Part shown: positions 1,385-63,654 of the stretch, piece by piece
How the letters are laid out: each line of letters starts with the position of its first letter
How positions within the stretch are numbered: position 1 is the first letter of the stretch
From: Octopus vulgaris
Lineage: Eukaryota
Direction: 5' to 3'
Assembly: GCA_951406725.2 (NCBI GenBank)
Contig: OX597816.1
Span: 31,124,001 to 31,188,000 of the forward strand
DNA length: 64,000 bases
The notes under the pieces: generated by a model
The model's input: the letters and a program-made list of their open reading frames with translations, nothing else
Database searches by the model: none
Told to the model about the DNA's origin: nothing
Position numbers and translations under genes: made by a program

Positions 1385-2100
1385 CATATTTGTGTATGTG
1401 TTACGATAGTTTAAGAAAAATATTTGTTTCATATCTAGCGTGAACTACACATCTCTTCAGTTTCTCTAAGCATTAACCGTTCTCTGCAAAGAATGTTTGC
1501 TTCAAAACACGAGAACGCCGGTGATAGTTCAAGAAATAATCCTCTTTAAATGTATGGCGAGGCGAGTTGTCTTCCTTCACTTGATAGCTAGGTTTTCCAA
1601 TTTTGAAGTAAACATTTCCGAAAATGTGGACAACTCTCCACGGCTTCCATCCTGGAGTTATGGTAGCTTCCTGACTCATGTGAGTTCATGAGAATTATAA
1701 ATCTTTATGGTAAACACAATTTACACAGTCTTGATCCATTACGACAGGGTCCACAAATTTCCAATAACTTCCGCCTGATGTTAAAGGGCGTATGATCGTC
1801 CTTTAGTCGCTATACGTATGCTGCAATGGTTGTTGTGTTCTATTTTACCGGGTCCCTAAAAGATCTGTGATTGCTCAGGCAAATTAAAAATCTGTATTCA
1901 CAAGATCTGACACAAATTTTACTTTGTGTCCCTGTGATGGCATTGGTGTTATTGATATTTGTGCTGCTTCTGTTTGAGGCTATCTTTGCTTGGTACACTG
2001 TAGGCTCAGTATAACATCGGCCGTCAGAGGTCATTCATTCCTAATCCTGTCTGAACAAACTGCCCCTGTCCCTGGCTTAAGATTGCTAAGTAATTGATTC
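1385..2100 (-). mobile_element. Penelope-like element (Naiad-type) 3' remnant: decayed Cys-rich linker + GIY-YIG endonuclease + 3' pLTR with hammerhead motif
   Basis: Manual minus-strand translation through one frameshift and several stops gives NQLL..CSDRIRNE*PL/DGRCYTEPTVYQAKI..KICVRSCEYRF..NHRSFRDPVK*NTTTIAAYV*RLKD..FNIRRKLLEICGPCRNGSRLCKLCLP*RFII..YHNSRMEAVESCPHFRKCLLQNWKT*. This matches the CxCR..CPLxGxC / VYxA / H..SF / CxLCLxE / LNxRSE..CxH pattern of Naiad-type PLE endonucleases. The element ends at (TA)n. Confidence 0.85.
1414..1465 (-). ncRNA. Minimal type-I hammerhead ribozyme motif (degenerate stem III) in PLE pLTR
   Basis: Minus strand reads AGAAA-CTGAAGA-G-ATGTGTAG-TTCACG-CTAGATAT-GAAAC-AAAT-ATT-TTTCT. 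Stem I is AGAAA/TTTCT, the core is canonical CUGANGA, stem II has 7 of 8 pairs, followed by GAAAC. Position 16.2 is A instead of G. Confidence 0.7.
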
Positions 2101-2105
2101 GTAAT

Positions 2106-2374
2106 ATTGTGTTTAACCAGAAATATTTATAATTCGCATGAACTCACATAGGCCAGGAGGCTACCTTAAATCCAGGTCCGAAGCCTTGTGGAGTTGTTCA
2201 CATTTTCAGAAACTTCTTCTTAAAAACTGGAAAACCTAGCTATCAAGCGAAGAAAGACAGCTCGCCTGGCAACATTTTAAAAGAGGATTGTCTCTTGAAC
2301 TGTCGCCAGCGTTTTTGTGTTTGAAAACAAATATTCTTTGCAGAGAACGGTTACTCTTTAGAGAACCTGAAGAG
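2106..2374 (+). repeat. Inverted pLTR copy of the PLE (right arm of fold-back with ~1454-1722)
   Basis: Reverse complement of ~1454-1722 at roughly 80% identity by eye. Encodes the same C-terminus (..YLKSRSEALWSCSHFQKLLLKNWKT*) and ends in AGAAC-CTGAAGA-G, where a SINE interrupts it. Confidence 0.9.
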
Positions 2375-2498
2375 GACTTTGCCTTTCATCCTTTCGGGCT
2401 CGATAAATTAAGTATCAGTTACGCACTGGGGTCGATATAATCGACTTAGTCTGTTTGTCCTCTCTGTGTTTAGCCCCTTGTGGGTAGTAAAGAAATAG
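2375..2498 (+). mobile_element. 5'-truncated SINE (Deu/Nin-like domain family)
   Basis: gactttgcctttcatcctttcggg..cgataaattaagt..cagttacgcactggggtcgatataatcgac..tagccccttgtgggtagtaaagaaata; same family as 30746-31530. Confidence 0.85.
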
Positions 2499-3901
2499 AT
2501 ATGAACCTAATGGTATATGTATAAGTATATGGTATATGTATATGTATGTATATATATATAATAAGAAAATGCAGAAAACCTAAGATTGACAAAAACATCG
2601 ATTGGACAATATTCATAGCTTATTTTTAATGAAAGCATGACGTAACAAATAGGTGACATAACAAAAACGGTGTGGTTGTGCTATAATATTTTGTATATAT
2701 ATACATATTGTATAACAACACCGTTTTTTACCACTATTTTATGATTGATGATTATGAGCGAATAGAAGCAAATGCAAATTTTACATATGTTGATATTCAT
2801 GTGTGTGTGTGTGTGTATCAGAATGAATATCCGCTTATCTTCATTCTCGTAATATTTAGAAGTTCGTTCTGTATTTGGCTTGCTTATTGTAAATAAACAG
2901 CGTGTAAATGATGGATTTTGTGTAGTATGAGCCACGTGACGAAAGGTGATGTGGAAGGCACAAATATATCAATGAAGGCCATGCTCTCTGAAATATGATT
3001 TTAGAAAATCCTATTCTAATTTCTCCATAGAAATGTATAATTCAAGTATCAAGCATGAATTTCTTATGTTATTCGAGGTAGGGGCAGCGGGCTTTTTTAT
3101 TGATAAACTGTAAAAGAAGGATTTGTAATATATGTTATTCGTTTTCAAGATTGCAAGTATTAAATCGTAATACTTCAACGTTGAATGTCGAAAAGCGTTA
3201 AGTATTCATAATTCCTTAGAAGAAAATATAGAACTTGTAATATGAATGTGCATGAAGAAGTGTCATGGCAGATGGAAAATAAGGTTCCACTTTATGTTTG
3301 TATTGCCTGATACGTTTTATAACGATAAATATGACAGCATATAGAAGTAGATACAAGGATGAAGAAAAAAGACACAAGAAATACGAAAACAAATACTCAG
3401 TGTGAGCCCATTTAAATTGTAGCTCATATGATTTTTGTTTGCATTTTGTTTCAGGTGATAACAATTCAACCAAAATACAGCTCTTTATATATCAACTGAC
3501 GTATTCAATTGAATTGGTGGCATATCTTAAACACTATTGCTTAAAGTCATGTCAATTTTTGTGAAGAATGGAATGTCTTATTACGACGAAACTATTCTAG
3601 TTAAGAGTTTCTCATCCTACATTTATATGTATATAATATATTCACAGTAGAGTGGTATCACTTCTTTATCTATCTCAATAAACACACATGCGCACGTGCA
3701 CACGCACACATTCATTGCAATCCTACATCTATACTGTATGTTACTTTTTGCTGCGTAACTTGTTAAAATCATATATACCATCTTTTATTTGTATACTTGA
3801 ATTATATAATAGATCAAAATTTAATTGTGGATTTTAATGATCAATACACTATTAGAATCCTGAAGTCCGTCAGCACGCATTATCATTGCAACAGCAGACA
3901 G

Positions 3902-4082
3902 ATTTTCAAGTGATATTTTTTCCGCACATTACGTTCTAGATTCAATTTTGTTTTAAAGAAAATGAAATAAAATCATAATGAATTCTGCTTTACACAACTA
4001 TACCGCTTTGCATATATATCATTGACATTAGAATTTTCAAGTGATATTTTTTCCGCACATTACGTTCTAGATTCAAATTTTG
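3902..4082 (+). repeat. ~45 bp near-perfect direct repeat pair
   Basis: attttcaagtgatattttttccgcacattacgttctagattcaa occurs at ~3902 and ~4033. Confidence 0.9.
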
Positions 4083-4379
4083 CGATAGTCATTCCTCATT
4101 CCTTGATAAAATAAAATGCCTGTCAAGTTACTAAAGTTGCCAGTATCGACTAACGCACTTCCTTCAAAATTCCTAGCCTTGTGCCAAAATTTGAAACAAT
4201 TTACTAGATTCATCTAAAATTGTTAACCCCTTCAAACAAGTTTACAAATAGATTTACAAATAGAGAATTAGTTATTAAATAAATACATTTTTACTTAAAA
4301 GAATGTACAGCCGCATATGATATTGTTTTTATGTTCCTCTTCATTCTCATAGTTGATGTATATGTCCGATGATCCATCT

Positions 4380-6200
4380 TCCTGCTGAGCTACGATGAAG
4401 ATATTACAGATGTACTGCTGTGTTGGGCATTGTTTCGAAAATATTTTATGAGAAAAATTTTAAAGCTTATTCTCATCTAATTATGGCATAAAATGTTATG
4501 GCGGTTAATTTTGAACACCCATAGTTCGAACAAGGAAAGCTCTGTACATGAAATGTAGCTAATTGAAACAAGCTGTTTTTATGTTATTGTCAATTACGTT
4601 GTAACTTTAAAGAGAATTTTTAAAACAATTATATTTTGAACTTTATGTCGTACAAACAAACGAGGATTTTTATGGGTGCAACAACAAAGGCATGCAAAGG
4701 GCTAATACGTTTAACTACATTTATAGCTGATCCATGAAAGCTCGTTCCAAAATTTCTCCTTTATAAGAACTAACTTATTTTAGGTGAATTCGAGTAAACG
4801 TCAGGTCTATCATATTCATTTTTTGATATATTCATATCTAGGCTTACATGGCGTATGGCATGTCTTCAGTATTTTCGGACTAAAATATTCATTTCCCTCT
4901 CCAGTTCCAACTCTAGCTGATGCTCCTATAAATGTTTCACTCAGAATTAGCAACGACAAGGGCATGTAAATAGGCATTCGTGTAAACATAATTAGAACAG
5001 CATTTATGGCTCTTCATGATGCTATAATATTAATATGAATAAGACGCATGCAAAAGGGATTTATGAAGTATTTTCCGTATATACGTTTCAGGATAGGGTG
5101 TCTTTGAAATTACAATTAGAAAAGTAAAAAAAAAAAAAAATTCATTTATTCTGTTCCTAAATATATGTATTAATATATCAACACTTTCTGTTTTGATAGA
5201 ACAGAAAACACTCTTCAGTTATGCTGGAAGTAATGAATAATGCCTCTAATGAACTTATATACTAACACGTTTTTAGTGAATAAGAATTCACTTATATCAC
5301 ATTTCATTATATAGTTGTCTAGAATTTATATAGAACCGTATCGTATATATTAGAACATTGCCTTATCCAAAATATATTATAATGGCTATATTAGATGCAA
5401 CATTTAAAGTATATTTTAACAATATTTGAAATATCTCCCATTTAACTGCTGTAGGAGTTTTAAAACAATAAGAACATTCTAACGTCAATGATATATATGC
5501 AAAGCTGTATAGTTGCGTAAGGCAGAATTCATTAATATGATTATATTTCAATTTCTTTAAAACAAAATTTGGAATTACTTCTCTCCATCGTTGATACTTC
5601 AGCTTATACTTCTCTAATACAAAGCAAAAGTTTATTCACTGCAATTTATAAGTAGCAGTCTAACCATACATATTTAATTGTTAGTTAAAATTTTGCAGAT
5701 TGTTATATGAGCTCTCCGTTTAAAATGACATACCTTGAGATGTAAAATATTTAGATCAGTGTCGTAATGATAATTACATTCGAAATCTTCTCGATGGAAG
5801 AATGTAAATCATATGTGAATGGTATATATATATGCAATGTTGAATATTTGTTTAAAACAGTCTACTTTAATAAGCTTGCTTTAATTTTCTTTAGAACAAA
5901 ATTTGGAGATATTTCTGTCAATCTTTAAGGCTCAATTAATATTTCTCTGATGAGAAGCAAAATCTTCATTCACTTAGAAACTATAGTTAACAGAATATGT
6001 TACAAACTAGATTCGCGTTCACATGTTCTCAAAGCAAGAAAATATATATTAGTACATGGTTCTAAACAGGAATGTAAATGGAGAATATGTCTCCTCGCCT
6101 ACCTATGTTAATGGTTCATCTACTAAACGAACATACCATCACGCCAAGTTGTTTGACTTCATAGAAGCCCATTACATCATGGAAACAATTTGAGATAAGA
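4380..6200 (+). pseudogene. Possible heavily decayed leucine-rich-repeat (TLR-like) coding remnant
   Basis: Stop-ridden fragments resemble LRR units: FMGATTKACKGLIRLTTF (~4670), LEVMNNASNELIY (~5225), ILEHCLIQNIL*WLY*MQHLKYI (~5350), and an LRR-CT-like FAFTCSQ..STWF (~6010). Diverged internal repeats at ~5550 and ~5885. No intact ORF. Confidence 0.25.
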
Positions 6201-11650: not shown

Positions 11651-11877
<227 letters not shown>

Positions 11878-11885
11878 TATATATA

Positions 11886-12922
11886 CAACCCAACATGCTG
11901 TAGTCGAAGGAGTCAAATCCAGCCCAGCCAAAGTCAGCAGTGGTGTCCCACAAGGCACTGTGTTAGGCCCACTTCTCTTCATCATCTACATAAATGATAT
12001 TACTGACACCATCAAACACAGTAACATCAGAACCTTCGCTGATGATTCCAAGCTCCAGAAGGTCATCAATGGCGTGGATGACCGAATAAACCTTCAGTCA
12101 GACCTACTGGCTGTTGTCCAATGGGCGGAAAAGAATTACATGTTGCTAAATGAAAACAAATTCGAACTGATCCACTTTGGAAGGGAGGACGCTCTGAAAC
12201 TCCCATACTCTCTTCCTTCTGGAGAAATTCTCATGGCATCCAACAACATCAGAGACCTGGGAGTAACAGTGGACAACAACATAAGCTGGGCTACACATAT
12301 AAGCAGCAAAGTTGACATGGCCCGCAGAATGTGTTCCTGGATTCTCAGAACCTTCCAGTCGAGAGATTCCCATGCTATTATCCTTCTCTTCTCCACTTTT
12401 GCCCGACCCCACCTTGAATACTGCTGTCCACTGTGGTCTCCCAACACAAAACAAAATATTATGAGAATTGAAGCTCCCCAAAGGTCAATCACAAAAAATA
12501 TAGATGGCATGTCAGACCTTGACTACTGGGGTAGACTAGAGAAGCTGAAATTGTATTCACTCCAACGACGCCGTGAACGCTACATTATCTGTATGATGTG
12601 GAAAATATTCCATCAGCACTGTCCGAATGATGCTGGCATCACCTTCAAAATGCATCCAAGGCTTGGACCACGTGCCATCCGTCCACAACAAAAATCTAAA
12701 TCACATCACATAACGACAATACGGCACAACTATTTCACCTCAATTGGACCCGTTCTCTTCAACATTACACCAGGACACGTCAAAAAAGAAACTGACCACA
12801 CAAAATTCAAGAAGTCTTTGGACAAATTCCTTCAAACAGTACCGGACAAACCACCCACACCCGGATATGTCTCCGCAAACAATAACTCTCTGCTCGAATG
12901 GGCCTTGGTGCCCAAATCCTGA
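11886..12922 (+). CDS. Reverse transcriptase fragment (N-truncated, uninterrupted) of CR1-like LINE
   Basis: RT motifs PQG and FADD in an open frame. The ORF-track start at 11855 comes from the flanking repeat and is not a genuine start. Confidence 0.85.
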
Positions 12923-18136: not shown

Positions 18137-19920
18137 TGTTTAAGTTTCTTCAATTTCTTTTAGTTGCTTCTAATTTCATTCTCTGTACGTGACGAGATAC
18201 GAACACTTTTATTCAACAGTATATTCATGGGATTGGTAAATTCCATGTCATAGAACATGTCAAAGAGTTTTGAATAAAAGCTATTTGAGGGAATGATACA
18301 ATATCACTACCATCAGCCATCAAAACCACCACCACCACTTGTAGTTGTTCTTGTTTGGTGTAGAGTTATTGCCGGGTTTTGTGGTTCTTTTTGTTGTTGC
18401 TGTTGTTATTTTCTCTATCACTGCAGTTATTTTTCGCTACTATACTTTTGGTATTATCATTATTATTAATTGCTTTTTCTGGTATTGTTTTATACTTATT
18501 GCTTATCATTTCATTTCTTTTTATTATTGTCACTGTTGTTATTCATTATTTTACATATAAATTTGGTGAAAGTTGCTTTTCAATTTCAGACCAAATATTT
18601 ATAACTTACCATCGAAAATGAAACATTCTCGAGTAGTAATTTAAAAGTAGATTTTCCTTTTGTGTTTGGGTGTACTAAACCATATTTACGGTTGATGTCG
18701 TCGGTTCTCTGAAACTGTAAAATGTTAAACTGTTAAACATAATAATTCTGCCAATGCTATGAGCAAAAATATATTTCAAACAGTTGCTATCAAATTTTGA
18801 GGGACGAGTTGTCAGTAGGATCAGTCGACATTGCTTAAACAAATATACTGTATTTAGTTATGTATCCTAATATTCCTATTTTTATATAGTGTCAAACCCA
18901 ATATTTGTTTTTCGTCCGTGCAGTTCTAAACAAATAATTGAAGGTTAAAGTAAATAATTCATGTTGGACATATACTGTTAATTATTGGAACCTTATCGCT
19001 CAAAGCAGTGACACAATTCTGAACCAAATCCAGAAAAAAAACTTACATTCATGTTGGAGTTGTTGAAGATTCAAAAGGCTGTTCTTACAACACAACCAGC
19101 CGTGGACGAATAGGAGGTAAAACTGGCTACAATAATAATGGATTTAAATGTTGGCATAGCGTCAGCAAATGCGAGTTAAGTTGATTACACCTACGCCAGT
19201 GCTCAACTGCTACTTACTTTATCGACCCTGAAAGAGATGAAAAGCAAAGCTGACCTCGGTGGAATTCGAAATCAGAACGTTAAGGCTGACAAAATACAGC
19301 TATTTTTGTTCTGCCGGCTTGCCGACTTACTGCGCATTTAATATTAATCAATTAGAAAGTAAACATTTTCCTACTAGTCATCCTAATATTTTTAAACAGA
19401 TATTTGAAGGGAATGTAAGCTTGTTCACTTATTTAAGGGGAAATTTGTTGCAATAACTTTTATTAATCACCTAATGATCGGATGATATATATCTTGAAAA
19501 TCTACTTTAGAAAGTTTTAATAAATATAGTAAAATATTGCGTCTTTGAGGCAAGAAATACATGCTACATCTCAATATGTAATGCTTCATATATTTTGCTG
19601 CTAATGTGTTTGAAAAGCTAAAATTTTAAAATAGCATGTTAGTGAATTACTAAAACTGTTAACAGCAAAAAACAAAAATCTGAAAGCAAGAAAAAATATT
19701 CTCGGTCAAAACAAGAAATATAAAAGATGAAATGGATGTTTCAAAAATTAGGAAATCTTGAAAAACAAATACGGTTTCGTCAACGGTCGTAGTACTTCCT
19801 AGATCAGCGTACTGTATCATTCTTTCTCTAGCTACTATATCATCTTAAATATGGTCTTTGGAATTTTTTTATATACAGCAGTCAGAAAACTCCCTCAAAC
19901 CCCGCAGGAATATTTTAAAA

Positions 19921-22499: not shown

Positions 22500-23127
22500 C
22501 CCCAACCACCCCACCTACCACAGAACAAAACTTCATTTCACATTTTAAATTGAATACACCGAAAAATCTTGAAATATACGTAGTACACTCGGGCATTAAT
22601 CCAATATAATATATTCACTTTAAAGCTAGATTACCGACCCACTTTACACGATTAAATAGTCATTGTCCCCACATCCAGCCCCATGCATCTAATGAAGCAA
22701 ATTACAAACACGTGGAACCCAATTATTCAATATAATGTAAGACTAAACACTAAACGAAATTTTCCCTTTTTTCTTTTACTTCATTTTGTTTGTTATGCTT
22801 GCATTTATTTCCCTCTAAAACTATTCTGAAGATGTTTGTTATATGTAGCGAGGTAATGTAAACTTACTCCGATTTGATAAACAGAAACTGCTGTAAATGA
22901 TTCCGAACTACAATTAAATAATGATATTTAACACTAATGATCCACTTCTCATTGTTAATTATGGCTCCATTTCTTTCCTTTTCTATATATATTAAACCAG
23001 GGTTTTACGTTTAAATTACCTACAACCGTATAACTAGGATTATACATAGTGAGGCAATACACCAGGAGTGCCTACAAATATATCTATCCCTTAGATGGTT
23101 GCATAACCACTAACTTATATCTTAGCA
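22500..23127 (+). mobile_element. Probable PLE 3' end/pLTR
   Basis: TEQNFISHFKLN resembles the PLE endonuclease C-terminus (E..FI..F..LN). It is followed by a hammerhead motif and ends at (TA)n. Confidence 0.55.
22822..22899 (+). ncRNA. Type-I hammerhead ribozyme motif with long stem II
   Basis: TATT-CTGAAGA-TGTTTGTT..(inner gaggtaa/ttactc hairpin)..GATAAACA-GAAAC-TGCT-GTA-AATG. The core is canonical, stem II has 8 bp, the triplet is GUA and stem I is TATT/AATG. Confidence 0.7.
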
Positions 23128-23183
23128 TATATATATATATATATGTATATACACAAGCTCACCCATATGAATATATAGAGACA

Positions 23184-23887
23184 TAAAATTTAACGAATAT
23201 GTGTACGTACACAAATCTATTTTATATATAGTATTAGGTATAGTGCCTTCGCAAAATAGAAGCGTTTATTTGGCGTAGTCATTAGATATAAATGGATAAA
23301 AATCACGCAAATAACCCGAGGAAGATCACAATGCAAATTGGATACCAACAAACTAATCATACACAGAATCAGACAGGCGGATGCTTGTGCCTGACATTGT
23401 ACAAATATAAAGCTAAAATACAAAGTTCAAAGTTGTGTAGAGTGAAGATAAATCAACTAAAAGAAGAAACCAAAAGGTTCCTGACTATTCAGGTGATAAA
23501 AATCTATCAAAGAGAAGAAACCGAATTAATATAGCAGAAGAATACTTCTGCAGTGCCATGTAAACAGACATTTTATATTCGGTGTCCTATGATTTTTTTC
23601 ATTTTCCGTTTATTAATTTCTTTTTATACTTTTCCTTCCCTTTGATAAAGTCAATCACCCGAAACGTCAGATTCTTTTCGATTTCTTCCATGGTTGTATT
23701 TATCTTCAATGAATATTTGTTTGATTATTGTGCTTACTATTTTTACGCTTTATATATCTACTCTTTTTCATGTTCGTACCTTCGCCTGTCCGATTTCCTG
23801 CATTTTATTATTAGTATGTCGCCTTTTGCCTGATAATCTTACTTGGATTTTTGTGTGGATTTTAATATAATGTATACATATTTCTAA

Positions 23888-23894
<7 letters not shown>
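23184..23894. repeat. Old, diverged fold-back element (arms ~23297-23520 / ~23631-23865) with a hammerhead-like motif
   Basis: Inverted matches include cagacaggcgga/ttcgcctgtccg, gaagataaat/atttatcttc and tatcaaagagaag/cttccctttgata. The right arm at 23639-23671 reads CCT-TTGATAA-AG..CCC-GAAACGTC-AGA. Confidence 0.7.
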
Positions 23895-23929
<35 letters not shown>

Positions 23930-24102
23930 CAATGAATATTAACTTTGGGGATTAATCAATATTTTGTATTGAGTGTCATATTTATTTACATTTGCAATGT
24001 AATTGTTCCCACATAAATCGAAATTACGACTTCCATGCAATTTACAAGTTATGACTTAGTTCCTTTCCGCTAGTCGTAAATATCTGTCAATCAGTCAATC
24101 AG

Positions 24103-24192
<90 letters not shown>

Positions 24193-24262
24193 CATCCATC
24201 AATCGATTTACCTATCCATCTGTCTCTACGTGTGTGTGTACGTATATATATGTATATATAGA

Positions 24263-24470
24263 ACGCCATGATAGACCGTTAGCTCCTACACGCATTTTTT
24301 CTGTCCTTGTTTCTCTCCTTGTTTCTTTTCTGTGTATCTTTCTGTCGAAGAGCGTAGGCTCGAAACGTAAAAGACTTGTTCTATTTCTATTCCTGATCAC
24401 CATACTAATACATTTGTTTGTTTGTACTCCATCTGCCTTCGTCTTTTGTTTATTTTCGTAAACCTTCCCG

Positions 24471-24472
<2 letters not shown>
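24263..24472 (+). mobile_element. Solo ~210 bp PLE pLTR-like element between (TA)n runs
   Basis: Non-coding, carries a compact hammerhead motif, and is bounded by TA repeats on both sides. Confidence 0.7.
24337..24374 (+). ncRNA. Minimal type-I hammerhead ribozyme motif, variant core CUGUCGA
   Basis: TCTTT-CTGTCGA-A-GAGC-GTAG-GCTC-GAAA-C-GTA-AAAGA. Stem I is a perfect 5 bp, stem II is 4 bp, stem III is the palindrome ACGT and the triplet is GUA. Confidence 0.75.
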
Positions 24473-24527
<55 letters not shown>

Positions 24528-26551: not shown

Positions 26552-27248
<697 letters not shown>

Positions 27249-27436: not shown

Positions 27437-27476
<40 letters not shown>

Positions 27477-27875
27477 TTCCGCTCAACCGGTCATTCATAA
27501 CAACATCAGTCTGTGTTCACATTGTCTTGACACAGGGCTCATCTAGACTCCAGCCTTCGTCGCGAATAGGAAATGCTCTCTCTTCGCTCCTTTTGCTCCA
27601 CATAGCATCAACTCCCCACTTCACCTGACTCCCCTCCTTTCCTCTCTTCACCTGATACCTACTTCATCCCTTCACTCCTACAAAACCTCTCCCTTCATTG
27701 AGAACCCCTCCATCCACGCAACGCTACACATCCCATACATATATATGTTTTTCTGTATGTATATTTATATACTCCCATACTTGTCATGTTTAACGAATAT
27801 TAAATTCCATGATTTTAATTCACCCGAAGAAACGATTTTCTTTACCTTATGAAGGAGCTGCAGTGAACCTATCTT

Positions 27876-27982
<107 letters not shown>

Positions 27983-30745: not shown

Positions 30746-31530
30746 AAGGCGGCAAGCTGGCAGAAACGTTAGCACGCCGGGCGAAATGCTTAGCAGTATT
30801 TTGTCTGCCGCTACGTTCTGAGTTCAAATTCCGCCAAGGTCGACTTTGCCTTTCATCATTTAGGGGTCGATAAATTAAGTACCACTTATACACTGGGGTC
30901 GATATAATCGACTTAATCCGTTTGTCTGTCCTTGTTTGTCCCCTCTATGTTCAGCATTTTGTGGGTAGTAAAGAAATAGGTATTTCGTATGCCACTACGT
31001 TCTGAGGTCAAATGTCGCCGAGGTCGACTTTGCCTTTCATCCTTTCGGGGTCGATTAAATAAGTACCAGTTTTGCAGTGGGATCGATATAATCGAATTAA
31101 TCTGTGTGTCTGTCCTTGTTTGTCCTCTCTATTTTTAGCCCTTTGTAGGTAGTAAAGAAATAGGTATTTCGTCTGCTATTATATTCTGAGTTCAAATTCC
31201 ACCTAGGTCGACTTTGTCTTTCATCCTTCGCGGTCGATTAAATAATTACCAGTTACGCACTAGGGTCGATATATTCGACTTAATCCGTTTGTCTTTCTTT
31301 GTTTGTCCCCTCTGTTTGTAGTCCCTTGTAGGCAGTAAAAAATAAGAAGCGTCAGCACGCCGGGCGAAATGCTTAGCGATATTTCGTCTGTCTTTACGTT
31401 TTGAGTTCAAATTCCGCCAAGGTCAACTTTGCCTTTCAACCTTTCGGGGTCGATAAATTAAATACTAGTTATTTATTGAGGTTGATCTAATCGACTGGCC
31501 CCTTCCCCACCAAAACATTTCGGGCTTAGT
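30746..31530 (+). mobile_element. Head-to-tail array of four tRNA-derived SINE units (~184 bp period)
   Basis: Units start at ~30746, 30979, 31163 and 31346. Each has gagttcaaattccgcc (B-box-like) plus gtcgactttgcctttcatcctttcggggtcgat (Deu/Nin-like domain). Confidence 0.92.
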
Positions 31531-32311: not shown

Positions 32312-32808
32312 GAGTGAGCGAGCAGAGCATGCCATCAAAGTGACACTGGGGTAAAATATACGAAGCCCAGTATACCCATCATGACTACCCGTCTGATAAG
32401 GGTACACCAGGCACATGCATCACAACCATATGTGCGTGACATGGTGATCTCATATCAAGATAAACAGCACATGACCTTGCAGGTGGAGCCCAGTTAGAAT
32501 TTTCTTCAGATCGAGTAACCCATCCCGCTCAAAAGGTCCCTGAATAAGGGTTGTTTAAGGACGTTGAACGAAACACCTATGTTTCCAGAGGTGAATTATG
32601 CAAACCCCAAAGAATCCTTCTCAACACATGGCTATGATGCTCCCCCACTACTTCTGCTCGTGATCAGAGATGCACATATCGTCAGCCACTAAGGGACATG
32701 CTCAACTAGTTAAGTTCAAACAACTGACAAGCAAGTCTGTAGTATTGAGCAGAATATTTGCTGTAGCCTATCTTTTATACCAAGACAAAACAATGTACTT
32801 GATACTTC

Positions 32809-32810
<2 letters not shown>
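32311..32810 (-). mobile_element. Second copy of the (TAA)n-embedded non-coding retroposon, 5'-truncated
   Basis: Matches 26552-~27050 and lacks the last ~55 bp on the right. Confidence 0.8.
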
Positions 32811-33041: not shown

Positions 33042-36000
33042 TTACATTGATAGGGTTTTTCTAAGGATGTGGGCATTACTTGTTAGCACAATCTTTTGGA
33101 TTTCCTTGAGACATGGTTTTCCAGGGATATTGTCTAGGTGTTTCTGACATCCCTTTTTTATCATACCTAGGGCACCTACAATAACAGGAACAGTTTTTGT
33201 TTTAAGATTCCACATCCTCTGTATTTCGATTTCCAGGTCCTTATATTTACTAAGTTTGTCAAATTCCTTGACAGATACATTTTTATCAGTGGGGACGCTT
33301 ACTTCTATTAGTCTGCAGGTATTTTCTTCCCTGTCTTTAACAATTATGTCTGGTCGATTAGCCTTGATCATTCTGTCCGTGTTGACTGGAAAATCCCAGA
33401 GGATGGTGACATCTTTACCTTCAACAACTGACTGAGGATGGTGTTCATACCAGTTAGCAGGAGTGTCGGATTTGTAGTGTTTACATGTCTTCCAATGTAT
33501 ATACTGTCCTACCCTATCGTGGCGATTTTTGTATTCGTTTGGTGTCAGCACAGGACATCCCGAAACGAGATGGTCTATCGTTTCGTCAAATGTGTCGCAG
33601 AATCTGCATTTAGGGTCAGTACCGTTTCGGAGAACGTTAGCCTGGTAATTTCTGGTAAACAAGCTTTGATCTTGTGCTGCCATTATGAAACCTTCAGTCT
33701 CTGCTTTCAATCCAGAGCTCTTCAGCCACTGATGGGTTGTTGCTTGGTCTACATCAGCATTTTGGCTTCGGAGAATATATTGTCCATGCAGGGGCTTCTG
33801 GCTCCACCGCCTCTCAATTTGATTCTGCCCGTTCTTTTTTGCAGTCTGCTTGATTCGCTTTGCTTGCTTGGTAGCAGTGGTTTCCAGCTCTTCATCTGAT
33901 TCAAGGTTAATGTCTAGTTCCCTTTCGAACTTATAAGCTTCCTTGACAATAGAATGCAGCTCTTTGTTGCTTTCGTGTTCGCGCACAAGTCGCAGCATCC
34001 AGTCCTTTGTACTAGATAGGTACCTGTTCATTCCTACAGTAGAGGTCTTATAGCACAGCTCTAATTGCATCATTCCTCTCCCCCCGCTGCTTCTAGGTAG
34101 GTACAAGCGGTCTACATCTGCCTTAGGGTGGTGCATGCTCCTGGATGTCAGTAATTTTCTTGTCTTCCTGTCTAAGCGTTGGAGTTCCGTAAGGTTCCAG
34201 TTAATGATATTAAAACTGTACTGGACTACTGGAAGTGCCAGGGTGTTAATGGCCTCAATGCAATTTTTGGAGTTGAGTTCAGTCTTCAGTACAAGCCTTA
34301 TTCTCCTATAGTATTCCTTTCTTATTTTTTCCTTCATAGTAGCATGATGTATACCATCTCCTTCGTTGATTCCTAGGTATTTGTAACTTTCCTGTGGGTC
34401 AAGTTCCTTGATGGTAGTGTCAATATCTAATTTAACAGAAGCTGTTTGCCTGAGCTTGCCTCTTACAAAAGTTGCTTTAGCACACTTATCAAGGCCAAAA
34501 TCCATTCCGATATCATTGCTAAACTCTTTAACAGTTGTTAGCAGCCCTTCTAGCTCTTGGTCATTCCTGGCAAACAGCTTTAGGTCGTCCATATAGAAAA
34601 GATGGTTTATTAATTTACTAAAAACTTTGTACCCATATCTAGTACTATCCAATTCGTTTGAGAGTGGGATCAGTGCCATGCAAAAAAGTAATGGAGAGAG
34701 GGAGTCACCTTGAAAGATGCCTCGTTTGATGTTGATGCTGTTGGACTGGCTCATCCCATTACTATGGCTTAGAAAGAGACGTGTGTTCCACATGGTCATG
34801 CTATTCTCTAAGAATTTTGAGACGACAGGAGAGATCTTGTATATCTCAAGGGCCTTGAGTATCCATTTATGTGGGACACTGTCATACGCTTTTCTGTAGT
34901 CTATCCATGCCATACTCAGGTTTTTGTTTTTGCTCCGGCAATTCTCTACAATCATTCTGTTTATGAGCAATTGGTCTTTTCACCCATAAGAGTTTCTTTT
35001 ACAACCTTTTTGAGCTTGTGGAAGGATAGAATTTTGTTCAAGGAAAGCGTACATTCTCTCCGTTATTATGGATGTGAGGATTTTGTAGGTGGTGTTGAGA
35101 CATGTTATTGGCCGGTAATTCTTTGGGTTTTTTTGTGTCTTCGGTTTTAGGTAATAGGTAGGTGGTTCCTTCAGTCAGCCAAGCAGGTATTTGCTCTGGG
35201 TTCTGAATGACATCAGACAGAGATGCAGTGAGATGTTCGTGTACCTCTGTCAAACAATTCAGCCAGAAGTTAGGGATCCGATCCAGTCCTGGGGTTTTCC
35301 ATTTATGAGCCTTCCTAAGGACACACCTTAGCTCCTCTATTCCTATTGCTTCCCATTTCTGTTCTTCAAGTTCATCCAGTCTCTCTTTCTCACGTTCTAT
35401 CCAGTCAGCCTCAGCATTAAACTCTTTTTCGTTGCTCCATACCTTCTTCCAGAACTCCTCCACTTCCTCAATCTTAGGTGGATCTTCTATGTGTATTTTA
35501 TTTTTGCCAATTTCCCTATAAAATTTCTTTGCATCTGTCTTAAAAAATTTATTTTGTCGATAAAATTTGTTTCTTTTGTCATACCTTCTAAGCCGTTGAG
35601 CTTTCAACTGTATCCGTTGTTTCAACAGTTCCTTAGTTGCAGGGAGGTTTATGAGATCTTTGATTTTATATTTTTGCTTGATTTTTCTAGCTTTTCTCGG
35701 CTTAATATTCACTCCTCTAGCAAGCTCATCGAGAACTGAAACATCCGCCCGCAGAGATTCAATCTCTTTTTGTATCGCTACTTTCCACTTAGGAGGTTCA
35801 TTGACATGCCTGGCCTTTTTCTTTGTCATCTTAATACCTAGTTGGGTAGTTACTACTTTAGCAGTGGAATAAATGAGATTATTTAAGGTTGTCAAATCAT
35901 TCCCCTTATTTCTTAAGATCTGTCCTAGGGCAACGTTATATGTCATGATTGTGTTGTTATTTCTTGTGCCATTTGAAAACTTTGGTAGTGGTTCTCTATT

Positions 36001-36747
36001 AACCATGTCAGTGAGCTCAATCTTGCCGAGTTCTCTCATAATGTCCACTTTTGCTTCCATAATCTTTTCTCTATTATTCACCTCAAATTCTATGTCATAT
36101 CTATTTTGGTTTTCTTGAGGAAGGTCTACGTTCTCCTCTTTTTTCAAATCTCTCGTCTTCGCTATTCTTTGTTTAACTTCCCCATTGGGAAGTTGATTTG
36201 CCGCTTGTACACTGGCTTCTGTGCTACTGTTACCTATTTCGTCTACATTGTTGCTGTTTTCTTTTGGTCTACCATGAGCTATCAGTGTCCTAATTTTGTC
36301 AATTTCAGCGTCAGTTAGTCTTTTGTTTTTAATTATATCTCTGCGTACATTACTTAATTTATTTGCGTCTATATATCTACGTACGTCATTGCCTACTGAA
36401 TTTCTCCATGAGATGTATGTTTGTACACTGAGGTTATTATTTGGGTTTAGTTGGGCTGTATAAAAAGCTTTCAACACATCTCTATAGTCCTCTCTGGTCC
36501 ATTTTATACGTTTTGCTTTAGGTAGTGTTTTTGGTGGTGTCACTACAAGTCCAGAGTTAGAAGTATTCTGGTTCTGGTCACCTGGTAGATCGTCTTTTTG
36601 AGAGTTTGTTCCAGCAGCAAACTTTTCGACCCCAGTCTGGTTCCCTACTGGGTAACGCGGTCCTTGTTGTCCCGGGCGATGACCGATCCGGCATGATTTT
36701 TGGCTTGTTTTCATTAAATGATTGACGGCGACATCAGAGGGGTCCAT
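33042..36747 (-). pseudogene. RT/RLE polyprotein of R4/Dong element, disrupted by one +1 frameshift (A7 run, 35128-35134) and one in-frame TGA (34980-34982)
   Basis: KWTREDY (N-terminal Myb-like), WKTPGLDRIPNFWL, (shifted) NYRPITCLNTTYKILT, AWIDYRKAYDSVPH, GIFQGDSLSPLLF, YMDD, CRFC..ETIDHLVSGC, RHD, RPD..IEVSVP..KLSKY. Confidence 0.93.
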
Positions 36748-37089
36748 TTTTTCAGAGTCAACTTTTTGACAAGACGCCGCCTCTGTGACGGTGTCGTTAG
36801 AAGAAGGAGTGTTTGTACAGGGTCAATTTTTTGACAAGACACCGCTTCTGAATTCTCCGAATTAATATATTGTTCATATCGAACTCGCATAAGACTTACA
36901 GATCGAAATTCGCCTCTATTTATTTTGGTAGTCATGTTTCCGGGCATAACTGTTCAATGACTTTCTAAATTCAGTGACCAATTTGCTCTTTTTTGCGTTT
37001 GTTCGTGAAAAATCGCTTTGTTTTTGTTTTGTTTTCGTCCGCGTAACGTGGTTTTTCTTTCTGTGTGTACGTGTGAGCGCTATTTATGC

Positions 37090-53870: not shown

Positions 53871-54109
<239 letters not shown>

Positions 54110-54114
<5 letters not shown>

Positions 54115-56002
54115 CAACTTATCAATAGCCTGGATAGACTATAAAAAGGCTTTTTATAGCCTACCACATAGCTGGATTAGGAAATGCCTTGAAATGTATA
54201 AGATAGCACCAACTCTGCGAAACTTCTTGACTGTAAGTATGAGATCATGGAGAACCACAGTAACTCTGAACAGTGACAGTGAATCCCTAAATGCTGGTGA
54301 TGTAAAAATTTCGTGTGGCATTTTCCAGGGTGACTCACTGTCACCACTCCTCTTTTGTTTATCCTTAATACCTCTCTAAAAGCTGCTCAATGACGCGCAG
54401 TACGGGTATAAAATGTTTGATAAAAATATAAATCATCTCGTTTACATGGATGATTTAAAGCTTTTTGCAAAAAATGATCAACAACTCAAGGGCTTACTAG
54501 CGATAGTCAAACAATTCAGTGACGACATCAGAATGCAATTCGGCCTTGATAAATGTGCAAAGGCTACCTTTATCAAAGGAAAAATGACAGAAACATCTAA
54601 CGTTAACCTTGACCAACAGAATGTCATAAAAGAACTAGACCCAGCGGAGAGCTACAAGTACCTAGGGGTAATTGAAGGGAACGGAATAAGGCATTCAGAG
54701 ATGAAGGAAAGGATCAGGAGAGAATGCTATCGAAGAGTGAGAGCAATACTCAAGACAGAGCTGAATGCAAGAAACAGGATCGAAGCAATCAATGCATTAG
54801 CTATACCAGTCGTGACTTACAGTTTCAATATTGTTAACTGGTCAATTACTGAAATATGTCAGCTCGACAGAAAAATAAGGAAACTGTTAACAATGCATAG
54901 AATGCACCACCCTAAGGCAGATACAGAACGACTCTATCTGCCAAGAAAAGAGGGAGGCCGTAGTCTTTTGCAACTGGCAATAACAATGAAGATTGCTACA
55001 ATTGGCCTAGACACCTACATGAAAAACTCTGAGGACTGGATGTTAAAACTTGTCTCAAAACATGAAAACAAGAAAGCATCATACTCAGTCACAAAACAGG
55101 CAAAGGAATATCTAAGTGAATTCCGAATACAACCAATTTCGGAATTAGAGATAGATATACAAGAAACAAGCACAGAAAAAGCTAGGCGCATGAAAACCCG
55201 TGCCAAAACTGCGGCCTTAGATATTCTGAATAATAAATGGCAAGAAAAACCTCTCTATGGTAAATACCCAAAGAGAGCGAATAATGCAGATATCGACAAA
55301 GCCCTGACCCATCAATGGCTAATGGCCTCTGGCTTAAAATCTGAAACAGAAGGGTTTATCATAGCAGCTCAAGATCAATGCCTACCAACAAGAAACTACC
55401 AGGCCAACATATTAAAGATCAGAAGCAGTCCAACATGTCGTGTATGCAAGCTACAAAATGAAACCATTGACCATGTGGTCTCCAAGTGCAGTCTTCTAGC
55501 GCCTACAGAGTATCTCAACAGGCACGATAGAGCTGCACAATATATTCACTGGGTAATCTGTAAAAACCTGGATTTGCCCCATGAAAAAAACTGGTGGGAA
55601 CACAAACCACCCCCAGTGCTTGAAAATGACCACATCTCACTCCTCTGGAACTTCACCATTCAAACTGACAGGAAGATAGATGCAAATAGGTCACACATCA
55701 TATTGAAAGACTTCAAACAAAGAACCTGCCCCCTCATTGATATGACTGTCCCAATCGATATAAACGTATCTGTCAAGACCTACCAAAAACTGAGCAAATA
55801 TAAAGATCTTGAAATAGAAATCAGCAAAATGTGGAAGCTGAAGACTAAAACAATACCTGTTGTCATAGGTGCCCTGGGAATGATAGCAAAAGGGGCTGAT
55901 AGCTACCTAACTCAGATACCAGGAAACCCAAAAATGGCAGAAGTTCAAAAGATAGTGCTCATGGGAACTGCTCATATCCTACGCAAAATACTCTCTATGT
56001 AA
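54110..56002 (+). pseudogene. Truncated RT/RLE coding region; premature stop and the RLE PD motif changed to SH
   Basis: NRSHII here versus NRPDII in the 33 kb copy; AFYS versus AYDS. Confidence 0.88.
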
Positions 56003-58187: not shown

Positions 58188-59878
58188 TATTGAGAGATAC
58201 ATAGATATAGTATTACGTATGGCATTATACACAAATATATGCTTCAGTCAAGCCGCAATATCCAGCTGCATGATCCACTTGTACGGAAGCTTTCACAACC
58301 AAACTCCGAGGATTGCCTTCGTCCATTAAAAACCCACCTAAAATGAGATTGAATGTAACTAAGCGTGCATGTGCAATAGCTTATTTTAGATTTTCATTAT
58401 GACACTCAGTAGCACTTTGCCTGATCAACAATAAATCATGCCTAAAGCATAGTAGTTACAGCGAAACGGGAAATATCTAAAGAGAATCTACTCTAAAACA
58501 CTAGGAAATGGTTGATATAACATTTAATCATGTGAAATAACATCTTGAAGGAAATATAACGAAAAATTATTTTTTAATTCCTACATCACTAAGATTTATA
58601 TTACAAAAGTGTCTGCACATTCACGTTGTATTCTAACAATATATACAATGTATTCTGCTAGGCTAACAACAGATTGACTTCCTGAGCGTTCGATATCCTA
58701 TAATATGTAGCTACATCAGTATTAATGCACTAACTACTACATTAAATGTAGTGCATTGCATATCATACTAAGTGATGCATTATTGTTTAATCAGTTCAGC
58801 AAGTTTATATTTTATTTATAAGTTTCGAACTAGACTTAAACGTTAGCAATATCTATAATAACAAACTCAATACTCATTCCTGAAATATTGCATAAGATAT
58901 CATTGGAGCAAATTCGGAAATTCGATACTGAATCTAGACCGTTTGTGACCAAAACTATTGGATGTCATTTTAAACATATCCTTATTTACAAATAGCTCTC
59001 AGTGAAAAGGAAAACAAAGAAATTTCAGACTCCACTGAATGAACAAATGTTCAGTCTTAATAAGACGTTTTCTGTACAAATTTAGGTTAAATAAATTCAA
59101 CGTGTCTTGCACTTGTATATTAATCCGATATAATAGGAACAGAATGTGAAAGCAACTGTGGCATCTAGTCAAAACACGTCAATATAAATCTAATAAAAGT
59201 TCACGATATCGGTTCTATGTCTTATATTAGGAGATCATCAAAAGGAAATTAAAGATTGATACGAGCAGATCAAATAAAATTCGTTTAAGGGGAAACAACG
59301 TCTATTCAATGGTAGTAAGTGTAGATATAATAATAGTCATAGGCATTAAAATTGCTGTAAACTTGATAATCATGACATACATTTCTATTTCTCATTTTCT
59401 CTACGTCTTTTTTATTAGTATCAGTTCAGCTATAATCATTTCATTATGTACATTCGGGATGTTTCAGAGCACGTCTTAGCTATAAATCACTTGGTCAGTC
59501 GGCAGACCACTAGACGGATGTTGTATGTGAATGTGTGTGTATAAGTGGCGAACCTACGTATGTAACCACTATACATGCGTTGGGTGTGTGTGCATTTTTG
59601 TGTCACAGTAAATTTTCGAATGTCTGCACTGCTGATGTAAAACCGTGTGTTGAAACAAGTATTGTTGTATTTCGGGAAGAATGGATTAAGGAGAGCAGAG
59701 GCACAAACGAGGTCGACAATTGTCGTTGAAGTGGTTACTGATGCGCGACGAGAGATTTCCGGACAATGAGGTAAAACCAGAACAGTAATGAACGGCCAAA
59801 GAACGAATATATAATGCATGTGCATGTGTTTGTGGGGAAGCAATATTTAGATAAACACAAACACAAACACACACACAC

Positions 59879-59933
<55 letters not shown>

Positions 59934-59971
59934 AAACAATGTAAAATTGAAAGCTACTGCTCGAGTGAAAA

Positions 59972-60380
59972 TATATACGAAAGAGGATTTTAAAATGCAG
60001 AGGTCTTTATTGACTTCACAGGTTTCACATTTAAAAAAAAAAAGATTTTTAAAACTAAAATGTAAAGCTTTGTGTCGCCTTTGTTGTGTTAAAACATGGT
60101 TATTATAGGTGTATTAAAATACAGTGATACGGTCTTTCACAATGAAGAGAAAACCTTGAGAAACTGAATCTTTGACAATAAGAAAACATTCAGAGGGGCT
60201 TATTGTTTAAACAGTTTACATAAAAGTGTTCAAAATAGGTAGTAAAATAAAAAAAATATATTTTCAACACAACACAGGCTACACAAAGCTCTACATTTTA
60301 CATGTGAAAATAACATGTGAAACCGGTCAGGTCAATAAACATCTTTAAAATACCTCTGGATTTTCAAACCCTCTTTTCTG

Positions 60381-60385
<5 letters not shown>
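59972..60385. repeat. Diverged fold-back element (~125 bp arms) between (TA)n runs
   Basis: aaaatgtaaagctttgtgtcgcct..gttgtgtt pairs with aacacaac..aggctacacaaagctctacatttt. The right arm has GAAACCGGTC-aggtc-AATAAA, and its termini resemble those of 60461-62787. Confidence 0.8.
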
Positions 60386-60461
<76 letters not shown>

Positions 60462-60499
60462 GAAAGAAGGTTTGAAAATGCAATTTAAAAGATGTTTAT

Positions 60500-60544
60500 T
60501 TACTTAACCGGTTTCACTCTTTGGAAAAAGATTGTCAAAAGTAA
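60500..60544 (-). ncRNA. Hammerhead-like motif, U3-A8 core variant (left-arm copy)
   Basis: Exact reverse complement of 62704-62748. Confidence 0.55.
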
Positions 60545-62703
60545 CATAGAATATTATGAATTCAAAAAAGTTTTTTACATAATTGCCACATTGAATGTTA
60601 TGAATTCAAAAAAGTTTTTTTTACATAATTGCCACATTACATGTATATATATAGTCTTTGGTAACAGGGACATGTTAAGGGCATAAAGAAGTTCAACAGT
60701 GTGATGAGAATATTTGAAAGAATGGGCAGAAAAGAATAAAACAAATATATTATTGGAAGTTTGGTTGCGTTAATTATTGGTTGTTGCAAATTGTCACATT
60801 ACATGTATATATACAGTCTTTGGTAAAAAGGACATAGTACAACAGTATGGTGAGAATATTTGAAAAATTGGCGGAAAAAATTATTAAAATGAATATATTA
60901 TACATCTCAGGGTCAGTATAGAATATTATGAATTCAAGGCGAGTTTGTTTACTGATCTGTCCGTTTTAGCAGAAATGTTGAATTGAGAAAAATGTACCCG
61001 TTTTTTTCTGTTTATGGCTTTCCTTCAAGCATCAATGATTTTGGGGTTAGCATGAGGTGAGTATGTGTGTCTCTCTGCGTGTGCGTGAATAGATGTGTCT
61101 GTGCGCCTGTAGTATTTGGTCAGATGGCGTCTGTTTGTCAAGTGTGTGTGGTTGTCATGGTGTTGTGTGTGCGTGTCTGTGCGTGTGCGCGTGTGCCTGC
61201 GTGTGTACGCATGCATGAGTGTGGATGGCATTTGACATGGGCTGCGTGTGTATATATGTGCCTGTATGGAGGTGAGGCTGGTGTGAGTGTGCGTGCCCCT
61301 GTGTGCGTGCACACACACGTATACAAGCATCTGCGTGTGTGTGGGGGCTGTTTTTGAATGGTTTCAGGGTGGCGAAAATAGATGTGTGTTGTTTAAAGAA
61401 TTTTTTGGGGTAGGATGGTGTGTGTATATATGCGTGTCCGCCCGTGCGCGCCCGTGCGCGTCTACGCGTGTGTGCGGGCCATACATACATACTAAAACAC
61501 ATACACACACACACATCACACACACACACACAACGCACACACATATAATATACACACACAACACACAAAAATAACATGTATTTATATATAATACACACAC
61601 ATATATAACACACACACACAACACACGCACACATACATACATAATATAAATATAACACAAATACACCTAGCACATATATACATACAATACACATACACAG
61701 CATGTGTATAATACACATAAACAATATATACATACAATATACTTACACAATACATACATATAATATATATATATATAGACAATGCATATACATATATACA
61801 TATATACATATAAATAGTGTTTACATACACATACATAAATATACCACATATACACACAATATACATACATACAATGTATACATATACACGTACGCATACA
61901 TATAACATATATATATACACATAACATACACATACACATATACACATGATGTACACATACATATACAATACACATACATACAATATACATATACACAATG
62001 CACATAATGCACATCTATATACACATATATATATATATTCACACATATACACATACACACATATATATATAATGCACACACAAACACAAAATACATACAT
62101 ATAGCGTACACACACATATATATCTACATACCACACACACACACACAAACAATGTACTCATATATACACATATACACATATATACACACACACAACACAC
62201 ACATATATACATATATATAAAAAACATATACACATATAAATACATACACACACACAATGCACACACACACACACGCACACACACACACAACGCACACACA
62301 CACACACCACACACACACACACACACACATTGACCCTGAGATGTATAATATATTCATTTTAATAATTTTTTCTGCCAATTTTTCAAATATTCTCACCATA
62401 CTGTTGTACTATGTCCTCTTTATCAAAGACTGTATATATACATGTAATGTGACAATTTGCAACAACCAATAATTAACGCAACCAAACTTCCAATAATATA
62501 TTTTTTTTATTCTTTTCTGCCCATTCTTTCAAATATTCTCATCACACTGTTGAACTTCTTTATGCTCTTAACATGTCCCTGTTACCAAAGACTATATATA
62601 TACATGTAATGTGGCAATTATGTAAAAAAAACTTTTTTGAATTCATAACATTCAATGTGGCAATTATGTAAAAAACTTTTTTGAATTCATAATATTCTAT
62701 ATG

Positions 62704-62748
62704 TTACTTTTGACAATCTTTTTCCAAAGAGTGAAACCGGTTAAGTAA
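62704..62748 (+). ncRNA. Hammerhead-like motif, U3-A8 core variant (right-arm copy)
   Basis: TTACTT-TTGACAA-TCTTT-TTCC-AAAGA-GT-GAAA-CCGGTT-AAGTAA. Stem I is 6 bp, stem II is 5 bp, stem III is the palindrome ACCGGT and the triplet is GUU. There is an extra GT before GAAA. Confidence 0.55.
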
Positions 62749-62834
62749 ATAAACATCTTTTAAATTGCATTTTCAAACCTTCTTTCGTATGTAATTCCAC
62801 TCGTGCGATACCCCACAACTCAACTTTATATATA

Positions 62835-63654
62835 TATGTTTAAAATGAGCCAAACAGTATTTACCATCCATAATAATTACAACATTCTAATACAGTGAAG
62901 AACGTATCAGCACGCTTTGGGAGTATCGGTGTCATCGTTGCTCTCATCTATGAAACAAAATATTTAATAAGTATGTATACGCATACAGATACACATAAAA
63001 AGAAAATGCGCATACTCACAAACATACACATATACACATATACACACATACTCACAAATATATAAATATTTATATGTTATATATACCGGAGTAAACACAT
63101 AAATGTGAAACAAGGTGGAAAAAGAGTACTCAAATACCAGTGGTAGAGTAATATGCTTTGTATAAAGCAGCAGAAAATTCAACAACACCTGTTACTCTGA
63201 GGTTCCCATTGCCGTTCATCGGACAGTTTTTGCTAGAAAAACTGTTTTTGTTAGCAAAAACTGTCCAACGAACGGCAACGGGAAACTTAGAGTAACAGGT
63301 GTTGTTGAATTTTCTGCTGCTTTAAATAAAGCATATTACTCTACCACTGGTATTTGAGTACTCTTTTTTCCACCTTGTTTCACATTTATGTGTTTACTCC
63401 GGTATATATAATATATAAATATTTATATATTTGTGAGTGTGTGTGTATATGTGTATATGTGTATGTTTGTGAGTATGCGCATTTTCTTTATGTGTATCTG
63501 TATGCGTATACATACTTATTAAATATTTTGTTTCATAGATGAGAGCAACGACGACACCGATATTCCCAAAGCGTGCTGATACGTTCTTCACTGTATTAGA
63601 ATGTTGTAATTATTATGGATGGTAAATACTGTTTGGCTCGTCATTTGAAACATA
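62835..63654. repeat. ~820 bp near-perfect palindrome centred at ~63243
   Basis: Arms of ~405 bp pair almost to the apex (aaaaac-t-gttttt), with outer ends gagccaaacagtatttaccatcc / ggatggtaaatactgtttggctc. Confidence 0.98.
63189..63298. ncRNA. Divergent pair of hammerhead-like motifs at the palindrome apex (63189-63226 minus; 63261-63298 plus)
   Basis: Minus: CTGT-CCGATGA-ACGGCAATGG-GAAC-CTCAGA-GTA-ACAG. Plus: CTGT-CCAACGA-ACGGCAACGG-GAAAC-TTAGA-GTA-ACAG. Stem I is CTGT/ACAG, and the two-arm consensus approximates CYGANGA..GAAAC..GUA. Confidence 0.45.

Follow-up and report, generated by a model that had tools for sequence, protein, structure and literature searches.

A 64,000-nt window of the Octopus vulgaris genome (GCA_951406725.2, contig OX597816.1, positions 31,124,001 to 31,188,000) contains seven loci at which a hammerhead-like ribozyme motif, intact or decayed, lies near a (TA)n run: C (1385-2374), F (22500-23127), E (23184-23894), A (24263-24472), G (59972-60385), B (60461-62787) and D (62835-63654). 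All seven had been picked out by a first-pass annotation, and all are present in the window. We conclude, with little doubt, that they are 5′-truncated insertions into (TA)n of at least five endonuclease-bearing families of Penelope-like elements (PLEs). We put the probability of the combined explanation, namely truncated PLE insertions whose inverted-repeat (fold-back) forms arise at insertion, at roughly 0.8. Such fold-backs are likely by-products of insertion and not a separate RNA-silencing system.

The 2.8-Gb genome was searched for copies of each family, giving first-look candidates that should not be taken as copy numbers (A, 1974; B, 1457; C, 222; D core, 1212; E, 18; F, 801; G, 852). 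An origin in multiple PLE families had been proposed from the window alone, and five of the seven families (A, B, C, D and F) indeed lead upstream into open reading frames (ORFs) for a reverse transcriptase (RT) and/or an endonuclease (EN). Long copies of B consist of tandems in which an ORF lies between two pseudo-long terminal repeats (pLTRs), together with an inverted truncated copy. The B ORF, taken from locus L173, encodes an RT with DKG and YLDD motifs (RVT_1, E 2.2e-07), a CxxxCxxC linker and, C-terminally, a GIY-YIG domain. Remnants of a Neptune-type ORF lie upstream of A on the sense strand in 6/30 loci, and the CX2-5CxxC linker that precedes the endonuclease in Neptune PLEs (PMC8557442; here and below, statements from the literature refer to the accessible parts of the papers cited) is present in the A and B ORFs. 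B also reproduces the Neptune insertion pattern, with a partial tandem, an inverted 5′-truncated copy, a one-sided tail and a TA target; A ends at TA, and no tandem pLTR was seen among the A copies examined. Family C has DKT, YRDD, a CxCX5C linker, RWK and a CxxC..E..N..CxH endonuclease, which is the Hydra pattern; its endonuclease is C-terminal, which ruled out a Naiad identity. Sense-strand remnants of a Hydra-type ORF with the linker and CxxC/CxH lie upstream of D in 6/20 loci, and F has a Hydra-type endonuclease end upstream in which CxxC/CxH was seen and the linker was not. Both D and F carry W-S/H/R where the Hydra type has RWK. Judged by these motifs, A and B appear to be Neptune-type, as does G by its similarity to B, and C, D and F appear to be Hydra-type. 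The loci had also been described as non-coding, a view that fails for the C arms, where 2108-1409 on the minus strand matches a PLE endonuclease (E 1.5e-47).

Local alignment bore out the five inverted repeats reported earlier, each of which exceeded 100 shuffles: C (arms 1453-1724 and 2101-2374, 225/272 identical), E (23287-23529 and 23623-23876, 169/235), G (59971-60107 and 60248-60385, 102/126), B (60461-60915 and 62331-62787, 98.5% identity) and D (62835-63241 and 63246-63654, 391/405). By the same comparison F and A have no inverted arm, as the first-pass annotation implied. Some boundaries moved. The left edge of B was correct, while on the right B continues through a 40-nt tail to 62827. 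The inverted repeat at D is genuine, but D proper spans only 63086-63402, the outer arms being flanking sequence found at a single locus. The loci are mostly unrelated, as stated before, with the exception of B and G, which are ~80% alike over 95 nt.

The common polarity of the fold-backs, with the motif on the minus strand in the left arm and on the plus strand in the right arm so that 3′ ends point outward, was confirmed in the window and holds well beyond it. Among 278 best-match loci with 1.5 kb flanks, where a TA run was defined as (TA)5, all 76 inverted pairs lacking such a run between the arms have outward 3′ ends. Five of these entries are the window pairs, G being counted twice through the B/G cross-match, and elsewhere the count is 71/71. 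The 13 inward pairs all contain TA between the arms and were read as separate neighbours; 11 further outward pairs also contain TA there. Proximity of the motif to (TA)n, emphasized earlier, is weak evidence by itself, given that 22% of the window lies no more than 300 nt upstream of some (TA)5 run. What stands is direct contact: in the copies inspected, family ends directly adjoin TA, and the motif lies 26-230 nt before the long end that adjoins (TA)n.

The two arms are also unequal. Every B pair (6/6) combines one long and one short arm, as do 39/43 D pairs (three others are long/long and one is of another kind). In the window, the tail is on the right arm of B (62788-62827) and on the left arm of G. 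In D and B the short arms end at a fixed internal position, ~85 of 151 in D and ~460 of 497 in B. The inner ends of B differ in all six pairs, and since junctions vary between copies, the fold-backs look as if they were made anew at each insertion. Rare variants are shared by the arms of one locus more often than between loci in B (9/26 versus 9/166) and F (34/123 versus 103/1303), and weakly so in G. In A, B, C, E and F, the majority of copies lack an inverted partner within 1.5 kb.

These features could be accounted for by dual priming, which we somewhat favor as the usual route to a fold-back. Both strands of the target would be nicked, and each would prime its own complementary DNA (cDNA) from the 3′ region of the element, one strand starting at the tail-end site and the other at an inner site. 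Both cDNAs would stop early, and their 5′ ends would be joined to each other at a microhomology or palindrome. Joining two truncated cDNAs in this manner would leave both 3′ ends facing outward into TA and the tail on one side only, and the ribozyme would occur in both arms because it lies near the 3′ end of the element. The Poseidon PLE protein PAc offers a biochemical parallel: in vitro it nicks and extends both strands at AT-rich DNA, and reverse transcription begins at two internal RNA sites, the interval between which is the tail (PMC11167929). Poseidon belongs to another clade, and the joining of inverted arms was not shown there.

One locus suggests that two separate templates can be involved. 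L246 (G000:C15:65282401-65285444) contains, at 1424-1730, TA, a B short end (-), a junction, a D long end (+) and TA. The junction has an overlap of 2-4 nt and no TA, and both parts are ~95% like their families. This Neptune/Hydra chimeric fold-back hints at two templates; alternatively, a deletion between two neighbouring insertions could have produced it. Another candidate chimera, L080, is both old and ambiguous.

The strongest competitor, which we regard as possible though clearly less probable than dual priming, is self-priming, in which a single cDNA (or antisense RNA) would pair with itself at a short palindrome and serve as its own template, copying at times continuing into the flank. 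This route has been proposed for head-to-head PLE inversions (PMC3846280), agrees with the palindromic D junctions, and fits the shared arm variants of B and F equally well. Its best support is the window copy of D, in which both tails plus ~250 nt of single-locus flank are present in both arms. A genome search with the D outer arms gave only two candidates, the two arms themselves (common words being skipped by the search). This duplication has no simple explanation in dual priming on RNA, and we infer that it is best explained by cDNA self-copying through the primer into the flank. Against self-priming, the fixed internal stop of the short arms matches the second RT start site of PMC11167929, and one self-priming event cannot produce the B/D chimera. 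Separately, the D flank contains an exon-like stretch of 83 nt (63539-63621) between AG and GT; Pfam gave no match for it, and no exons turned up next to it.

Besides the D flank, several points weigh against truncated insertion with dual priming. Within-locus sharing of rare variants shows no excess in D (7/74 versus 155/1452 between loci) or C (4/93 versus 29/944). Eleven of 21 D junctions fall at one CTAG palindrome, where the query itself began; a query from further upstream found others elsewhere. L246 is a single case, the sole clear cross-family one among 318 loci. For E, no RT/EN ORF was found within 1.5 kb upstream, and the link of G to PLEs is indirect, through a single RT piece lying within a rearranged fold-back and through its ~80% similarity to the B 3′ end. 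The clade assignments come from motifs and not from a tree, and the copies examined are best matches, not a random sample of the genome.

The first-pass annotation had described a recurrent system of short, mostly non-coding fold-back derivatives. As dedicated non-autonomous families moving as a hairpin RNA unit, this is improbable. D comes closest to it, being mostly fold-back (22/30 loci) and having the 11/21 junctions clustered at one palindrome. Junctions reached from the upstream query lie elsewhere, however, and D runs upstream into a Hydra-type ORF, for which reason a defined short master for D was dropped. Moreover, the inner ends differ in 6/6 B pairs, and A has an inverted partner without intervening TA in just 1/60 loci. 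A separate system is therefore not supported: junctions vary, most copies of five families are unpaired within 1.5 kb, and the architecture corresponds to the one already published for PLE insertions.

We next consider the motif itself. A strict hammerhead scan, allowing neither the extra base after A9 nor the U3-A8 variant, missed all seven loci, and we used a relaxed type-I descriptor built from features in PMC4209133. The statement that each locus has a compact type-I motif is valid at the family level; in the window only 3/12 copies (A and both B arms) pass the descriptor. One unrelated site in the window passes as well, and ten shuffles gave 0-4 passing sites, so the window count by itself is not clearly above chance. 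Most window copies are damaged: C-left has a decayed stem III and C-right lacks the GAAA half, F fails by one stem III pair, E has weak stems, both G motifs are decayed with core mutations, and the D motifs carry core mutations too. Since the window count overlaps the shuffles, support for the motif comes from the family copies (window copies included), of which 79/198 pass on the sense strand versus 1/198 on the antisense strand. Passes on the sense strand are 28/30 for A, 25/30 for B, 9/30 for C, 2/30 for D, 1/18 for E, 6/30 for F and 8/30 for G.

Across families, stems I-III pair although the stem sequences differ. At 3-8, A, C, D and F have a C-G pair, and B, E and G have U-A. The minimal type-I features are present, namely the core from 3 to 9 with its 3-8 pair, GAAA, UH, stems I and II, and a palindromic stem III. 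Invariance of U4 and A6 and of the G10.1-C11.1 pair was not found: A has U6, D has C4, and stem II is closed by U-U in B and G and by U-A in F. The U at position 6 is kept in 87/92 family A copies, a count restricted to motif-spanning matches, which favors conservation. In 29 A-like copies that resemble the window copy at only 66-84% overall, conservation of the motif reaches 70-90%+, except at the first stem base and at position 7, where the base is free to vary. The motif is thus real at the family level and, with core and stems conserved in such diverged copies, looks selected in master lineages. The predicted ribozyme is likely to be under selection only in master elements, where it would cleave as a dimer in tandem transcripts, and to decay once a copy is dead.

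Other predictors returned no hammerhead for these families. None was among the Rfam matches listed for the window (150 of 236) or among the nine for 22500-24475, and Hammerhead_1 gave six matches across the genome, none within the seven families; these belong to other families (L227-L232). Monomer folds of six short motif stretches, one of which ends before the core, gave no hammerhead, and five were no stabler than shuffles, although such folds are uninformative for dimer ribozymes. The lineage-fixed A6U core and the L246 chimera are small new items, although A6U and U4C cores may already be covered by Lunse 2017, and the supplements of PMC4209133 and PMC8557442 may include such variants and families. 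Neither A6U nor U4C cores were met in the accessible part of PMC4209133, and terms for variant cores had no match in the accessible part of PMC11014351.

Could the fold-backs be kept for a function, either ribozyme self-silencing or a supply of double-stranded RNA (dsRNA) for ADAR or small-RNA pathways? We consider this marginally less probable even than the hairpin unit. Transcripts reading through a fold-back would form long duplexes in which the motif is included, with antisense preceding sense either way, and in this sense the earlier idea that the antisense arm sequesters the ribozyme follows from geometry. There may be little to sequester, as a fold-back transcript carries one sense ribozyme and single minimal PLE hammerheads did not cleave (PMC4209133). 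In addition, decay has affected most of the window motifs, selection is not required for polarity or asymmetry, and in PMC11167929 ribozyme cleavage was protein-assisted and not needed for insertion in vitro. In favor of such a function, antisense small RNAs map to rotifer PLEs (PMC3846280), and lizard Penelope copies are heavily edited (>40,000 sites), with many dsRNA-forming loci in octopus (PMC5625713). By analogy, incidental A-to-I editing of the octopus fold-backs is plausible. Contigs from three presumed RNA runs cover parts of the families, and none covers 63426-63727; their A>G counts equal those of a likely DNA run, but contigs cannot show ends or editing, and the comparison weighs neither for nor against editing. 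Lastly, miniature inverted-repeat transposable elements (MITEs), or chance motifs beside abundant TA runs, are very improbable: the short TA-flanked inverted repeats and the shuffle overlap of the window count would fit, but the RT/EN ORF links, the unequal ends, the variable size and junctions, and the 79 sense versus 1 antisense motifs do not. On the same grounds (unequal ends, variable junctions and RT/EN links), membership among MITEs or fold-back DNA transposons was rejected.

Much of the architecture has precedents. Published accounts of PLEs already include the pLTR ribozyme, the U3-A8 variant, opposite-strand pairs, head-to-head inversion, the one-sided tail and TA targeting. PMC8557442 describes PLEs with inverted 5′-truncated copies, one-sided tails of 30-40 bp, pLTR hammerheads and (TA)n targets; PMC4209133 documents pairs of ribozymes on opposite strands, 100-700 bp apart, in Schistosoma, as well as the U3-A8 variant and the extra base; and head-to-head is the commonest PLE arrangement in PMC3846280. 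A and B resemble Neptune PLEs (PMC8557442) in an RT with DKG/YxDD, a Cys linker, a C-terminal GIY-YIG, partial tandems, the inverted truncated copy, the tail and (TA)n. Unlike Neptune PLEs, A has a fixed A6U core and is almost never inverted, and in B and G a U3-A8 core is combined with a stem II closed by U-U. Between them, C, D and F share with Hydra PLEs (PMC8557442) DKT, RWK, the CxCX5C linker, the CxxC..E..N..CxH endonuclease, the hammerhead and (TA)n insertion, whereas D differs in its U4C and a stem II of 2-3 bp. The minimal PLE hammerheads of PMC4209133 have in common with ours the extra base after A9, the palindromic stem III, U3-A8 and mostly solo truncated copies. Animal non-LTR retrozymes (PMC7229834; bioRxiv 2026.07.22.740005; PMC6765202) are likewise short, PLE-related repeats bearing type-I hammerheads. 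Retrozymes are ORF-less head-to-tail tandems, whereas the copies here are solo or inverted ends of ORF-bearing families and were therefore not counted among retrozymes. L1 fold-backs provide a parallel (bioRxiv 2024.12.14.628481). An octopus repeat survey includes Penelope families, with no mention of ribozyme or editing in its accessible part (PMC13282606). Our search, from which most subscription papers fell outside, found no paper on cephalopod PLE ribozymes or on cross-clade chimeric fold-backs.

Table 1. Positions of the PLE-derived features in the window.
Feature	Position	Strand	Description
Family C left arm	1385..2100	-	Hydra-type PLE, 5′-truncated; remains of GIY-YIG coding sequence, followed by the 3′ end adjoining (TA)n; supported by tblastn against a longer copy (E 1.5e-47) and by translations
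Family C hammerhead-like motif	1411..1469	-	Canonical CUGAAGA core; stem III decayed in window copy
Family C right arm	2101..2374	+	Stops right after 5′ core; SINE-like (short interspersed element) repeat then begins
Second family C 3′ end, 54 nt	1277..1330	+	Faces left arm across TA run, 3′ ends inward
Family F solo 3′ end, Hydra-type	22650..23127	+	Motif 22821-22901: canonical core, long stem II, GUA
Family E old fold-back	23184..23894	both	Arms 23287-23529 (-) and 23623-23876 (+)
Family E U3-A8 motifs	23480-23515; 23638-23671	-; +	Decayed (-); weak stems (+)
Family A solo 3′ end, Neptune-type	24263..24472	+	Motif 24337-24374: A6U core, 4-bp stem II, palindromic stem III, GUA
Family G fold-back	59950..60385	both	Left arm (-) with tail, runs inward to ~60252; right arm (+) ends at (TA)n
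Family B fold-back, Neptune-type	60461..62827	both	Short end at 60461; long end with 40-nt tail 62788-62827
Family B intact U3-A8 motifs	60500-60544; 62704-62748	-; +	Triplet GUU
Family D fold-back, Hydra-type	63086..63402	both	Tail on both arms
Family D U4C-type motifs	63189-63226; 63261-63298	-; +	One core mutation each in window copy
Inverted flank duplicate, ~250 nt	62835..63085	-	Original at 63403-63654, single-locus sequence

The window is locally rich in these families, as the flanking 60 kb (L233-L238) contain no copy of any of the seven at E 1e-5. An eighth PLE remnant lies at 27476-27880 (+), a Neptune-type endonuclease end ~72% like A with a (TA)n end and a decayed core-like motif. 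Elsewhere in the genome, near-identical B copies recur every 86-100 kb on contigs C35 and C36 of G000 (L174, L175). We take their neighbouring ORFs, the same at each copy, to be helicase-like and RT-like; the recurrence likely reflects large tandem repeats or a duplicated assembly.

Other repeats were noted in the window. Two non-LTR retrotransposon copies, ~65% alike and in opposite orientation, occupy 33042-36822 (-), which has an RVT_1 match, and 53993-56002 (+), and a 362-aa RT fragment of another long interspersed element (LINE) family lies at 11834-12922 (+). SINE-like units of 184 bp are arrayed in tandem at 30796-31313, with dispersed copies at 2375-2502 and 19176-19305, one of which adjoins the C right arm. 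A 500-nt direct repeat (26552-27053 and 32312-32810, 93.6% identity) lies next to (TAT)n at each position, and its family recurs in other loci. An inward-facing inverted repeat of 98 nt (3944-4038 and 5472-5569, 90%) has short direct repeats nearby; it carries no hammerhead-like motif and had no match among the fetched loci.

As the architecture is already known, the value of these loci is modest. The formation of inverted structures is named as an open task for PLEs in PMC8557442, and dual priming can be told from self-priming by predictions open to counting, namely strict polarity, long/short asymmetry and chimeras between families. A bolder proposal, which we hold to be rather doubtful, is that a fold-back records two PLE complexes, possibly of different clades, priming at the tail-end and inner sites, that the A6U and U4C ribozymes are active variants, and that young fold-backs would serve as a genome-scale test of integration and as self-pairing ADAR substrates. 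Short fold-backs can be mistaken for MITEs or microRNA (miRNA) precursors; D scored 83 bits against a plant miRNA Rfam model, below the cut-off. For the octopus, such fold-backs may add incidental dsRNA for editing.

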